Assembly (NCBI GenBank): GCA_021513715.1
Contig: CP084167.1
Location: 992,001-1,056,000 of the forward strand
Origin: Candidatus Heimdallarchaeum endolithica
GTDB taxonomy: Archaea > Asgardarchaeota > Heimdallarchaeia > Heimdallarchaeales > Heimdallarchaeaceae
DNA: 64,000 nucleotides
Direction: 5' to 3'
This document shows positions 21,063-25,004 of the stretch, piece by piece. The position numbers and the translations under genes were made by a program. Numbering within the stretch: the first letter of the stretch is position 1; each line of letters opens with the position of its first letter. The notes below the pieces were generated by a model that was given only the letters and a program-made list of their open reading frames with translations, made no database searches and was not told the origin of the DNA.

Positions 21063-22715
21063 ATGAAAGCACATTTAAGTTTCCAATCCACTTTAAAGGA
21101 TATTTCTGTTTCTCCCAGTAAATGGACGAGAGAATCGATAATTTTACAACGAACAATAATAAAGGAGTTTGAAAATTATTTTGCTTCCTTAGAAAGGATT
21201 GACCAACAACGTAAGAAGTTTATCCTTCTTTCTGTCTTTTCTTACTCTTTTTTTGCTATATTAGCCATAATTTTAGGCGTTTTTGTAGGCTATGTTTTTC
21301 TTTCTCTCCTTGCACTCAGTGGACTTGGCTATTTATTCCAGTGGTTAGCAAAAAACAAGAAAGTAGAATATGATAGTTTGGAGCCTGAAAGTAAAATTAC
21401 AGGGCTATTCACTCTTAAATATCCTATTTTCAGTTATTTTCTGCCAGATAATGAGCTTTTTCTTTACGATGGAGGAGGACTTTTACCTTTTGTTGAAATC
21501 TCTATTCCTTTCTTCAAAGACTATCAAAAAATCGAAGAAGCACTTTATGAGCACCAACAATCTGACGAATTTATGCAACTTTATCTTGAGGGTGACCAGC
21601 TTGCTCTTTATAATTGGATTAAAGAGAACCCTTCGCTTAAAGATAAATTATCCCAACACGATATTGACGCTATTTGGGAATATCTTTACAACAAGATCAA
21701 GAAATCTACTGATAGATCCAACCAAGTTCATCAAGTTTTTGAGTTGCCTATTATTCAGCGTGAATCTTCTGTTTATAACGATATTTTACGTATTTCTCCT
21801 TTTCTTACCAAGGAGGCTGTTAATCCTGATGAAGAGTTTGATATTCTTAACAGTTGTCTAACTGAATACAGTATTAATAAAATAGAATTATGGAACAATG
21901 AAATTAAGGAGATGTATCGTTCTATCCAAGGTGAGCCCATTGTTCATACTTTAAGAAACACCGTGGGTCGAATTAACCGTGAAACTGCTAATATTTTAGA
22001 AATGCTTGGTGGAGATTTAAAGGAGATAGTTAGTTCTACTGTTCCTATTGACAACACTCTTTTTTCTGATTTTCACTATATTCGCTTATGTCCTGTTTGT
22101 GGCGAGAAAAGAATAGCTATAGAGCGCAATACTTCTGACTTTGAAACTTGGATTAATAACAAGGTTCTTGGAGGAGTTTTGGAAGACATTGATTTACAGA
22201 ATCCTGCACCAGAAGCCAAAGATAAAATTGACACAATGCGTTACGAATTACAGGAATTTATTAACAAAACTATTCCTGTTTCTAAAGAAATAATCCCCTA
22301 TATTAATGCTGATTTAACTTTGATGGAACTTGGAATGGATGGTCGTTATTATTGTCCTAAATGCTCTAACAGTTCTGAATATCTTGAAATTATCGATGCT
22401 TATATTCCCTTAGCTCATGCTTATGAAGTTAGGATGTATGAGTCACAAGATATTATGTTAGAAAATGCCAGAGCTATTATTCAAAACATTGCTAGTATAG
22501 TCAATACCAAAAATAACAGAATGACCAATTTAGCTCCATTACAGGTTGAACTTGAAGAGAGTAAGAGTGAATACTTGAAAATAGCTGCAGAGCGTAAGAA
22601 AGCTTCAGAGATGAACAAGTTACTCAGGAACTTGACTAAAGAGTCTGAAAAAGCAATGAAAGAACTTGAATCTGTTCGAAGAAAAGTAGAAAAAATAAGG
22701 AGCAGGGTGAGTTAA
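21063..22715 (+). CDS. Uncharacterised membrane-anchored protein with split Zn ribbon and coiled coil
   Basis: Two adjacent TM helices near the N-terminus, CPVC and CPKC, C-terminal heptads; AAGGTG RBS. Confidence 0.75.
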   Translation: MKAHLSFQSTLKDISVSPSKWTRESIILQRTIIKEFENYFASLERIDQQRKKFILLSVFSYSFFAILAIILGVFVGYVFLSLLALSGLGYLFQWLAKNKKVEYDSLEPESKITGLFTLKYPIFSYFLPDNELFLYDGGGLLPFVEISIPFFKDYQKIEEALYEHQQSDEFMQLYLEGDQLALYNWIKENPSLKDKLSQHDIDAIWEYLYNKIKKSTDRSNQVHQVFELPIIQRESSVYNDILRISPFLTKEAVNPDEEFDILNSCLTEYSINKIELWNNEIKEMYRSIQGEPIVHTLRNTVGRINRETANILEMLGGDLKEIVSSTVPIDNTLFSDFHYIRLCPVCGEKRIAIERNTSDFETWINNKVLGGVLEDIDLQNPAPEAKDKIDTMRYELQEFINKTIPVSKEIIPYINADLTLMELGMDGRYYCPKCSNSSEYLEIIDAYIPLAHAYEVRMYESQDIMLENARAIIQNIASIVNTKNNRMTNLAPLQVELEESKSEYLKIAAERKKASEMNKLLRNLTKESEKAMKELESVRRKVEKIRSRVS

Positions 22716-22716
22716 A

Positions 22717-23796
22717 ATGTCAGAGAGAACAGATAATTTACTTTCTAGAGTTTTATCAGAGTTACAGAAGATGAACAACCGTATCATGGAACTGAACAAA
22801 TCAATGAGCCACATTAGTAGTCAATATGAAAAAGTTGTCAAGATGCAGGATCAGTCTATCAAGGTTCAAAAAGACCAGAAAAGTCTAATTGATGCTCAGT
22901 TAGACTATTTGTATACTACAGCTGAGTCAATTAATCGTATGACCATTATGGACTTAAACACCCAACTTATCGAGACTGATATTACCAAACAAACTTCTGA
23001 AACTCTTGAAGTTGAAGCTAAATTGAGAATGGAGAGAGCCATAGAGAAGTACAGAGATGAATATGGAAAAATTATTAGAGATTTTGTTAATGGTATTGTA
23101 GCAAATATTAAACACTTTGCCAAACTTAATGAAGAACATATCAGGCCTTTATTCGAAATCTTAGACAATTTAGAAAGAGTTTACAAGATTCTCAGTTCTT
23201 TTACTGCTGAGCATCCTGATTTAGAAATTTTGGATTATGCTGTTAGTACCTTTGATGAAAGGAAAAACAGGATAGATCAATCATATTCAGAAACAAAAGA
23301 AGTTTTGACTGAATTTATTACTAAAAGAGAGGAAGCTGAAGACACAATTAACACTTTCTATGTTAAAAATGAGGAGTTGAATTTAGAAGATATTCCTGAA
23401 GAAACGATTTCTTTAATATCCATTCCTTTTGCTTTTACTTTCTTAGAAAACGATAATGGATTAAGATTAAACATTAATGGTCCACTTAAACAAGAGCCAG
23501 ATTTTCTCTCTTCTTATAAAGTTCAATTTAAAGATCTTTGTCCATCGATGAGTAATGACTTATATTCTAATAAGAATACAAAAAAGAAGGTTTTAAGAAA
23601 AGTGAATGATCAACAGAATTTAATCAAACAGGGGAATATGGCTCACATAATTGAAGACTTAACCGAGCTCTTGACTTCTTCTGGTTTTTATCCTAAACAT
23701 CTCAAAAAACTCTCTAAACTTTTCAAGAGTCCTAATATTTCATTTAATGACACACAAGCTGAGTTAGGGACACAATTTGGAGGAGATGAACAATGA
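22717..23796 (+). CDS. Uncharacterised coiled-coil protein
   Basis: About 200-aa helical heptad N-terminus; starts 2 nt after the upstream stop. Confidence 0.75.
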   Translation: MSERTDNLLSRVLSELQKMNNRIMELNKSMSHISSQYEKVVKMQDQSIKVQKDQKSLIDAQLDYLYTTAESINRMTIMDLNTQLIETDITKQTSETLEVEAKLRMERAIEKYRDEYGKIIRDFVNGIVANIKHFAKLNEEHIRPLFEILDNLERVYKILSSFTAEHPDLEILDYAVSTFDERKNRIDQSYSETKEVLTEFITKREEAEDTINTFYVKNEELNLEDIPEETISLISIPFAFTFLENDNGLRLNINGPLKQEPDFLSSYKVQFKDLCPSMSNDLYSNKNTKKKVLRKVNDQQNLIKQGNMAHIIEDLTELLTSSGFYPKHLKKLSKLFKSPNISFNDTQAELGTQFGGDEQ

Positions 23797-25004
23797 GAGA
23801 ATATTATCAGAAAGTTGAAGGTCTCAACATTGATCCTGCAGGAAAGAAATGTCTAGTTACTTCTAAATTTGAAGGTGTTACTCCTATAGTTGATTTTGAT
23901 GTTATTTCTATTAACTCCAATGCCAAAGTTTCTGGAAGTGTTTATGCCAAAAGGCTTGTTTCTATTGAACCTGGAGCAATAATTAGCAGACCTATTGTTT
24001 CATTGGATAGCATAGAGATCAGGAGCGGAAAAGTGGAAGGAAAAGCCAATCATCCTACAATAATCATCGGTGACGTTTCTGCACTTGAAAAGATTAAAGT
24101 TTCTAAATTAAGCAACAGCGAGGAGCCCATTATTATCTATGGTAATGTTTTAAGTAAACACATCGAAATTGATGGGCCATTATTTGTAAGAGGAAATATC
24201 TATGTTTCAGATTCTTTAATTATTAATGAGCCTACATTTATTGCTGGAGAGATCAGAGCAGGACTGCCTACTACTGATGCAGAAGTTTTTCTACAAAATG
24301 CTTCCTTTATTTCTTTGTATTGTCAAGGAAAAGTAGAACTTGGACCTAATAACACTACTTTAGCTCCTGTACTTGTAGGTACAGATCAAATTAAGATGGA
24401 AAAGGACGGTAAAATAAGAGTAATTATTGACCGATGTCTAAATTGCAAGCTTAACTCTCCTAATCCTTTTCTCTGTCCTCTTTATCTTGAAGGTAAATGT
24501 GAGGAGTTTGAGTTTCTTTCTGAAAACGACATCTACAAGTATAAGGGTAAATACTTTCTTAACCTCTATTGGCGAGCAAATTACAAAATAATAGCTAACC
24601 ATTTCTTAATGAACCAAATTCAAAGAAACGTTTACAAACGTTTGAGAGCGCAAACTGCTTCTACCTCTACTATAGGAACTTATAACTATAAGAATTTGCT
24701 CAAACAGATGTATAACGATCTTTTATCTTTTCCTGTTTCAACTAAATACATTGATGAGTGGATACAAAAGAAGTTACAAGAAGTTAAAGAAAAAAGATTA
24801 AAGGCAAAGAAAATAGAAGCACTTGAAGAGACAGAACAATCAACAGAAGAAGAACAAGAACAAACAACAGAAGAAAGAGAAGAGGAACAAGAAATAGAAT
24901 TTGAGGAAGTAACAGTGGATACAGGGGAAGAAGAGGAGGAATTAAAACAATTAGACGATGAACTGTTTAAGCAACTAGAAAACAAACTAAAGTTTGATGA
25001 TTAA
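23793..25004 (+). CDS. Bactofilin-like (polymer-forming) beta-helix protein with Cys cluster and acidic tail
   Basis: Repeats VSGSVYA, IIGDVSA, IYGNVLS, VRGNIYV, IAGEIRA; CLNC-x9-C-x7-C; Glu-rich C-terminus; ATGA overlap. Confidence 0.6.
   Translation: MREYYQKVEGLNIDPAGKKCLVTSKFEGVTPIVDFDVISINSNAKVSGSVYAKRLVSIEPGAIISRPIVSLDSIEIRSGKVEGKANHPTIIIGDVSALEKIKVSKLSNSEEPIIIYGNVLSKHIEIDGPLFVRGNIYVSDSLIINEPTFIAGEIRAGLPTTDAEVFLQNASFISLYCQGKVELGPNNTTLAPVLVGTDQIKMEKDGKIRVIIDRCLNCKLNSPNPFLCPLYLEGKCEEFEFLSENDIYKYKGKYFLNLYWRANYKIIANHFLMNQIQRNVYKRLRAQTASTSTIGTYNYKNLLKQMYNDLLSFPVSTKYIDEWIQKKLQEVKEKRLKAKKIEALEETEQSTEEEQEQTTEEREEEQEIEFEEVTVDTGEEEEELKQLDDELFKQLENKLKFDD

Follow-up and report, generated by a model that had tools for sequence, protein, structure and literature searches.

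The window analysed here is a 64,000-nucleotide stretch of the genome of the Asgard archaeon Candidatus Heimdallarchaeum endolithica (G000, a single contig of 3,326,783 bp; window G000:C1:992001-1056000), with a G+C content of ~29%. Circular genomes have been reported for this species (3.32 Mbp) and for Ca. H. aukensis (3.08 Mbp) (PMC8813620). At 21063-25004 the window carries three genes, called g1, g2 and g3 below, with a fourth gene, g4, divergent from g1. A first-pass annotation made from the sequence had read the trio as a translationally coupled operon for a membrane anchor, a coiled coil and a bactofilin-like filament protein, and had called it of special interest should the host be an Asgard archaeon; the host does belong to the Heimdallarchaeaceae, and the open reading frame (ORF) map and the sequence confirm the three coupled genes at those coordinates. 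The features concerned are as follows, with lengths in amino acids (aa).

21063-22715, forward strand: g1, 550 aa (ORF map)
21213-21350, forward strand: predicted transmembrane (TM) hairpin of g1, residues ~51-96 (hydrophobicity windows; AlphaFold2 model, AF2)
22089-22364, forward strand: predicted split metal site of g1, C343-x2-C346 ... C431-x2-C434, with LGGVxxDPD between the pairs (27-sequence alignment)
22470-22712, forward strand: predicted C-terminal coiled coil of g1, residues 470-549 (AF2, heptad periodicity, PDB sequence matches)
22717-23796, forward strand: g2, 359 aa (ORF map)
23793-25004, forward strand: g3, 403 aa (ORF map)
23874-24428, forward strand: predicted right-handed beta-helix of g3, residues ~28-212, ~10 windings (AF2, superposition, periodicity)
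24435-24500, forward strand: Cys4 cluster of g3, C215-x2-C218-x9-C228-x7-C236, presumed zinc knuckle (alignment)
24813-25001, forward strand: acidic, predicted-disordered tail of g3, residues 341-403, 46% Glu+Asp (composition, AF2)
19747-20646, reverse strand: g4, 299 aa, coiled coil with a C-terminal PCI-like winged helix, divergent from g1
19750-20094, reverse strand: winged-helix module of g4, residues 185-299, C-terminal
20647-21062: intergenic region of 416 bp between the divergent g4 and g1, putative promoter region (ORF map)
19616-25046: presence/absence segment of ~5.4 kb with g4, g1, g2 and g3 and nothing else, represented by ~266 bp in the sister genome G001

The three reading frames are tightly packed. 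A single nucleotide (nt) separates the g1 stop codon from the g2 start, the g2 and g3 frames overlap in an ATGA, and purine-rich, Shine-Dalgarno-like motifs resembling ribosome-binding sites (AAGGTG, AGGGTGAG and GGAGGAG) precede the starts of g1, g2 and g3.

The AF2 model of g3, built with seven orthologues, is a beta-helix with a predicted local distance difference test score (pLDDT) of ~85-96 over residues 1-210, after which come the Cys cluster, where the model is poor, then helices and a disordered tail. Its hydrophobic pattern has a period of 18-19.5 residues and a sub-period of 6 residues, giving ~10 windings; the annotation had put the period of these repeats at ~17 aa. In an exhaustive structural comparison the model superposed on right-handed beta-helices with a root-mean-square deviation (rmsd) of 2.5-3.5 Å. 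The best match was 4phb_A (Z 14.7, 2.5 Å over 185 residues), and tapirins, two-partner-secretion (TPS) adhesin domains and autotransporter passengers fit at 2.6-3.5 Å. The left-handed GlmU, LpxA and LpxD gave similar distance-based Z scores, yet their rmsd was 11-13 Å; because the rmsd is low for right-handed helices only, the model is right-handed. A Foldseek search of the PDB with g3 returned nothing at E <= 0.001.

The annotation had named a hexapeptide acyltransferase as an example of an enzyme beta-helix that g3 might turn out to be. Left-handed acyltransferases (LpxA, LpxD, GlmU) do share with g3 the 18-residue period and 6-residue sub-period, and are listed for it by Foldseek and by distance-based scores; their handedness, however, is opposite, as that rmsd of 11-13 Å indicates, and g3 has neither a Hexapep match nor their trimer-interface active-site residues. 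Pfam Beta_helix and NosD likewise found no match in g3, whereas surface proteins of the same genome match these three families strongly. In the alignment of seven orthologues the invariant residues of the helix are of turn type (G, N, D, S, P) or buried aliphatic (I, L), and no conserved catalytic-type His, Glu, Lys or Arg occurs inside it. No signal peptide, TM segment or hydrophobic window above threshold was found in g3. Beyond the helix, cysteines 215, 218, 228 and 236 are invariant in the seven Asgard orthologues and kept in Infirmifilum (AF2 confidence is low there), and they are followed by a conserved W260-R261, a helical domain and then the acidic tail; alignment and composition thus agree with the four-Cys cluster and Glu-rich tail of the annotation. 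The model supports reading g3 as a right-handed beta-helix of bactofilin-like type rather than as a hexapeptide acyltransferase.

Several observations suggest a link between g3 and bactofilins at the sequence level. The PF04519 model matches g3 at E 4.8e-6, just short of its curated cut-off. The bactofilin family PF04519.20 is listed for g3 and for its orthologue in Asgard genome G003 in the precomputed Pfam column of the protein collection; NCBI names a Thorarchaeota orthologue of g3 'polymer-forming cytoskeletal protein'; and hhalign of g3 against nine Asgard proteins, all passing PF04519, gives 95.6% (E 1.2e-8).

In g1, hydrophobic windows span residues 51-96 with nearly no loop, as in one tight hairpin, and in the AF2 model helices 37-71 and 77-105 form such a hairpin. 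Lys/Arg residues lie on both flanks (QQRKKF before, AKNKK after), so both ends of the hairpin should be cytoplasmic. The two cysteine pairs, 343/346 and 431/434, are 85 residues apart with the conserved LGGVxxDPD motif between them. Across the 27 aligned sequences P121, C343, C346 and C431 are invariant, and position 434 is Cys, or His in one subgroup. This pattern fits a predicted split CxxC...Cxx[C/H] metal site, with zinc as the presumed metal. Since conserved Cys ligands require a reducing compartment, the large domain would lie on the cytoplasmic side as well. AF2 models residues 470-549 as a single long helix; the stretch shows heptad periodicity, and among PDB sequences it matches coiled-coil chains only. 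Hydrophobicity, alignment and model thus bear out the TM hairpin, the split CxxC pairs and the terminal coiled coil that the annotation had described, and support a predicted architecture of N-terminal helix, TM hairpin, cytoplasmic alpha/beta domain and C-terminal coiled coil, that is, a membrane anchor.

Relatives of g1 are very rare: a HMMER profile matched 37 at E <= 1e-3 among 1.84 billion representative proteins. Word-based homologue searches found two relatives apiece. One more distant subgroup, of 610-640 aa, comes from Thermofilaceae and other Thermoproteota, and a third comprises P0017, P0019, P0021, P0028 and P0033. Named database entries of g1 are all 'hypothetical protein', which is also the NCBI label of a 96%-identical relative from a Candidatus Heimdallarchaeaceae archaeon. 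We found no family or fold relative of g1 in Pfam, NCBIfam, PADLOC, the PDB or the ESM Atlas beyond coiled-coil matches: Foldseek against the PDB gave nothing at E <= 0.001, the exhaustive structural comparison gave generic helical hairpins only (over residues 23-116), and the g1 core had no usable match in the ESM Atlas (TM scores by query all <= 0.32).

The second protein is only partly what had been expected. The annotation had called g2 a long coiled coil, which holds for residues ~1-70. The remainder contains a conserved core, DFVxGI...F, followed by a strand-like IP...GP motif, both alignable from Asgard archaea to Infirmifilum, and there are nine prolines from residue 144 onward; because of these prolines and this conserved strand-like motif in its C-terminal half, g2 is not one long coiled coil. 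Searches of Pfam, NCBIfam and PADLOC, and of PDB sequences with a profile, gave no match for g2 beyond coiled-coil noise, and the ESM Atlas gave no usable match (TM scores by query all <= 0.32). A paralogous relation between g1 and g2 was ruled out (hhalign probability 0.9%).

For conservation we sampled 400 Asgard genomes (G000 included) and 401 Thermoproteota genomes. The g3 profile found full-length orthologues in 7 of the Asgard genomes, G000 counted, and the g1 profile found strong matches in 8, namely the same 7 and G293. Full-length g3 adjoins g1 in 7 of these 8 carriers; the G293 contig ends inside g2. The carriers belong to the Heimdallarchaeaceae, a second family of the same order, Thorarchaeota, Njordarchaeia and two further families. 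Strong matches occur in 3 of the Thermoproteota genomes and a divergent two-gene form in 1 (Bathyarchaeia-type); a related-locus search with the Thermoproteota subset of g1 gave a single locus. The order g1-g2-g3, with gaps of -20 to +20 nt, was found in G003, G028, G132, G383, G386, G389 and G293 (cut by the contig end) and in three Infirmifilum genomes: a metagenome-assembled genome and the chromosomes of Infirmifilum sp. NZ and I. lucidum. The Infirmifilum operon occupies syntenic places in two related chromosomes, and its g3 is 25% identical to that of the window over 272 residues (E 2e-22). Ten other loci, complete or cut, thus keep both the order and the tight coupling, and the trio is therefore beyond chance; the annotation had asked whether the three genes co-occur elsewhere, and in these Asgard and Infirmifilum genomes they do. 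Because Thermofilaceae also carry g1-g2-g3, the module is not Asgard-specific.

The two-gene variant, in G423 (L035 9300-12282), consists of a gene for a 670-aa protein and, after it, one for a g3-like protein of 325 aa (PF04519 18 bits). In hhalign comparisons the 670-aa protein is similar to the hairpin region of g1 at its N-terminus (88%) and weakly similar to the strand motif of g2 at its C-terminus (14%); the module may here be fused or have diverged.

The fourth gene that accompanies the trio differs by lineage. Here it is g4, divergent from g1 across the putative promoter region; the g4 protein ends in a PCI-like winged helix with a conserved L-x3-F-x2-W-x3-E tail. The g4 module matches a gene abutting the operon in G003 (E 6e-8), which is convergent and has TM helices, and residues 741-830 of a fused 937-aa g3 in G132 (E 1e-3); invariant W, G, K, L, F, W and E residues are common to the three. 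Pfam PCI matches two of these three winged-helix modules (best E 2.5e-5). The G003 homologue reaches 22.7 bits with PCI against a cut-off of 22, and g4 of the window reaches 13.3-16.5 bits with PCI/CSN8_PSD8_EIF3K against a cut-off of 23.7. In these C-terminal matches the family resembles the PCI winged helix found in subunits of the proteasome lid, CSN and eIF3. The match is confined to the winged-helix part: the N-terminal part is a coiled coil, which has TM helices in G003, instead of a helical-repeat solenoid. We tie g4 to the module because it is adjacent in two arrangements, fused in one, and co-varies with the trio in an insertion/deletion difference (indel) described below. In G028 g3 is extended to 946 aa with zinc ribbons; this C-terminal extension was ruled out as a g4 winged-helix module (hhalign 0.3%), so the fusion is evidenced by G132 alone. 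On these sequence comparisons g4 would belong to the module as a lineage-specific fourth component, in a unit larger than three genes in this genome, and its winged helix is likely a protein-protein docking module.

Elsewhere the fourth place is taken by other genes: a WD40 propeller gene follows g3 at the Thorarchaeota loci (Pfam WD40), and in Infirmifilum a Ser/Thr protein kinase gene (Pfam Pkinase) stands directly after g3, its large N-terminal region being read as putatively propeller-like. The variable end of g3 itself carries zinc ribbons or a winged-helix module in other lineages. Because the fourth gene or the g3 end differs by lineage in this way, the system has a conserved core, g1-g2-g3, and an interchangeable output end.

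The g4 module also gave weak matches in the C-termini of NosD/TSP3 surface proteins (E 6e-6 to 6e-3), which we rejected as probably compositional. The regions concerned, G000:C1:612000-632000 (L052) and 150000-158000 (L053), hold at least 5 genes of 850-1150 aa with NosD/right-handed beta-helix matches, most with bacterial TSP3 repeats, and a further open frame of ~2278 aa with 17 TSP3 repeats.

The module is variable between close relatives. Aligning 20 kb of the window to G001, a closed 3.1-Mb genome of a sister species in the same genus, showed that the flanks of the segment (82% identity over window 19522-19615, 95% from 25047) have 266 bp between them in G001 but 5.4 kb in G000. The G+C content of the segment is the same as that of its surroundings. 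We found no integrase, transposase, replication gene or tRNA target within it, and no clear terminal repeats or target-site duplications on reading the junctions, where no dedicated repeat search was made; the junctions share a similar AT-rich TTTTTCCAATAA-like motif that is present in G001 too.

The interpretation that we favour, at even chances, is that these genes encode a protein scaffold without enzymatic function, placed at the cell membrane on its cytoplasmic face. In such a scaffold the g1 hairpin would be seated in the membrane, its presumably zinc-stabilised domain and long coiled coil facing the cytoplasm. Translational coupling would keep the synthesis of g2 in step with that of g1; g2 is predicted to act as the adaptor, its N-terminal coiled coil probably pairing with the coiled coil of g1. 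Next in line, g3 would be a rigid rod some 5 nm long, with ~10 windings and, as its cap, a presumed Cys4 zinc knuckle and a helical domain, and may stack end to end into a polymer. The variable g3 C-terminus and the lineage-specific fourth gene would then recruit whatever the scaffold organises. As the annotation had said, no described pathway fits the trio; we infer a bactofilin-type scaffold with a dedicated anchor made up of two new protein families.

Among the nearest known counterparts are the canonical bactofilins (PF04519/DUF583), such as BacA of C. crescentus and TtBac of T. thermophilus, with membrane partners that include PbpC, Csd5/Csd7 and LmdC. Several bacterial bactofilins are encoded beside a membrane protein, as g3 is near a membrane protein gene. 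They share with g3 a right-handed beta-helix of ~18-residue windings, a disordered charged tail, a lack of enzyme motifs and a weak but specific sequence similarity. Canonical bactofilins, however, have ~6 windings and unstructured termini, whereas g3 has ~10 windings, with a Cys4 knuckle and a helical 'SWYWR' domain after the helix; nor does g3 have an evident N-terminal membrane-targeting peptide, and its anchoring would go via g1 and g2. The predicted model is thus of the bactofilin type in its right-handed, three-faced helix of ~18-residue turns, and its length and folded C-terminal part set it apart from the compact six-winding form. A second, distinct bactofilin gene pair is conserved in Asgard archaea (family f20, at L014, L015, L016, L020, L021 and L023): behind each canonical bactofilin gene (227-231 aa), at up to ~100 nt or slightly overlapping it, stands a gene whose product is an acidic coiled-coil protein of ~310-330 aa with a conserved KFTS..E.ISK...LID end.

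The archaeal halofilins offer another comparison. HalB is itself a membrane protein, with a bactofilin domain and a TM segment in one polypeptide; this arrangement is not found in g3, the TM hairpin being in the separate g1. HalA and HalB of Haloferax volcanii belong to the wider bactofilin superfamily, HalA having two stacked bactofilin subdomains with a helical hairpin, and some HalA homologues occur in Asgard archaea (PMC11459167). By comparison g3 is a single long predicted helix with a zinc-type cluster and no TM segment, and is accompanied by g1 and g2. The words operon, zinc and coiled are absent from the halofilin paper (PMC11459167), and in full-text searches of the literature we found no paper that ties bactofilins to Asgard archaea beyond that remark on HalA homologues, and none that describes a g1-g2-g3 operon. 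Elsewhere in the genome (G000:C1:2320728-2321282; L054/L055), a separate 297-aa ORF has two sub-threshold PF04519 halves (24.8 and 22.6 bits); it may encode a double bactofilin of the HalA type that has nothing to do with the operon.

The membrane-tethered filament or scaffold proposed in the annotation is favoured by the anchor topology, the bactofilin-like fold and the co-occurrence of the genes, and it must be set against several observations that count the other way. First, the sequence link to bactofilins is short and marginal: PF04519 scores 27.2 bits on g3 (E 4.8e-6) over residues 115-157 only, against a curated cut-off of 27.9 (its orthologues score 22.1 and 18 bits against the same cut-off), and the hhalign match to Asgard bactofilins spans only 61 columns of a repeat protein. 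Second, solved bactofilins appear in no fold list for g3, by Foldseek or by exhaustive comparison, where short chains score low against a 403-residue model, and bactofilin chains had no match in the g3 profile search of PDB sequences. Third, the folded domain at the C-terminal end of the g3 helix could block the tail-to-tail contact of bactofilins. Fourth, g1 and g2 have no recognisable fold relatives in the PDB or the ESM Atlas by structural and profile searches. Fifth, the module is rare, in ~2% of the sampled Asgard and ~1% of the sampled Thermoproteota genomes, and neither g1 nor g3 occurs anywhere in the sister genome G001; being rare and missing from a sister species, it is an accessory trait and not a core cytoskeleton. 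Dispensable between sister species, it would be an accessory device and not part of core archaeal cell biology.

The scaffold has a bolder form, in which g1-g2-g3 is an undescribed membrane-associated archaeal cytoskeletal system common to Asgard archaea and Thermofilaceae, with a long, polymerising, zinc-bearing bactofilin, two new-family anchors and interchangeable signalling partners, that might shape or mark thin cell bodies or protrusions. We hold this to be possible but doubtful.

Among the alternatives, that of an anti-virus or conflict system survives best, and even so we consider it unlikely. Here a membrane-anchored g1-g2-g3 sensor would signal to a swappable effector (kinase, WD40 or winged helix). 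The interchangeable last gene suits this idea, as do the patchy, accessory spread and the indel relative to the sister species. The surroundings would suit it too, being a variable region with a restriction-modification methylase and repeated DNA resembling insertion sequences (IS-like), with CRISPR-Cas modules farther along the window. Moreover, the Infirmifilum kinase domain matches defence-library kinase models (e.g. mad6, E 4.5e-37). These kinase matches, however, are limited to the generic kinase domain (Pfam Pkinase), and g1, g2 and g3 from three lineages gave coiled-coil-type noise only with PADLOC 2.0 and match no model beyond it. The neighbours in Thorarchaeota and Infirmifilum are housekeeping or transport genes, not defence genes, and the module contains no nuclease, NTPase, protease or pore-forming component.

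Less probable still is that the genes are cargo of a mobile element, such as a remnant of an integrated plasmid or virus, serving that element in, for example, partition or the attachment of its DNA to the membrane. A clean 5.4-kb presence/absence difference between congeneric genomes would be expected of cargo, IS-like repeats lie nearby, and the occurrence in Asgard archaea and Thermoproteota at ~25% identity could reflect transfer. Against this, the segment lacks every mobility signature listed above (integrase, transposase, replication gene, tRNA target), no clear terminal repeats were seen on reading the junctions (no dedicated repeat search was made), the AT-rich motif is in G001 as well, and the G+C content is like that of the surroundings; the syntenic places of the Infirmifilum operon in two related chromosomes also speak against it.

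Finally, that g3 works in a glycan-handling operon, as an enzyme or carbohydrate binder with a right-handed beta-helix of pectate-lyase/CASH type, as its top structural matches to polysaccharide-lyase-like and adhesin helices (4phb_A at Z 14.7, tapirins, TPS domains) might suggest, is highly improbable, since g3 has no signal peptide or TM segment, its conserved Cys4 cluster indicates the cytoplasm, its helix lacks conserved catalytic-type residues and Beta_helix, NosD or Hexapep matches, and its ~10% sequence identity to these structural matches implies a shared generic fold only.

The genes around the segment are of several kinds. Directly upstream, at window 16493-19323, the gene of an Eco57I/TaqI_C-type restriction-modification methylase (672 aa) shares 4 nt with that of a Methyltransf_10-like RNA methyltransferase (271 aa); the latter is inverted and 69% identical in G001. 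Window 15398-16100 is a ~700-bp element with at least 15 copies in G001 at 72-86% identity, one of which (G001:C1:922666-923363) sits just downstream of the syntenic region; it is an IS-like repeat family, active or recently active. On the other side, at window 25041-26390, is a 449-aa PAS-GAF-HisKA protein that stops just past the phospho-acceptor domain with no HATPase_c match, hence histidine-kinase-like with no catalytic ATPase domain; its conservation in the sister species is 95%. A gene for a TauE/SafE-like membrane protein is found within ~2-3 kb of the module in this Heimdallarchaeaceae genome (window 27079-28023) and in two Thorarchaeota genomes (L024 4040-4804, L025 12908-13684), the window copy being 29% identical to that of G386 (E 5e-32). 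This gene is outside the indel and kept in G001; its recurrence may be chance or a common neighbourhood.

Eukaryotes have no closer known relatives than the Asgard archaea, in which the organisation of membranes and protrusions is an open question. Infirmifilum lucidum is a cultured isolate, so localisation and biochemistry of the module may be feasible without growing an Asgard archaeon; the operon records of I. lucidum and of Infirmifilum sp. NZ each consist of one contig of 1.6-1.8 Mb and so represent whole-chromosome assemblies. A conserved, enzyme-free operon that joins a predicted membrane anchor and a bactofilin-like rod to eukaryote-style modules (a PCI-like winged helix, WD40 or a Ser/Thr kinase) would be a testable candidate for a new membrane scaffold.

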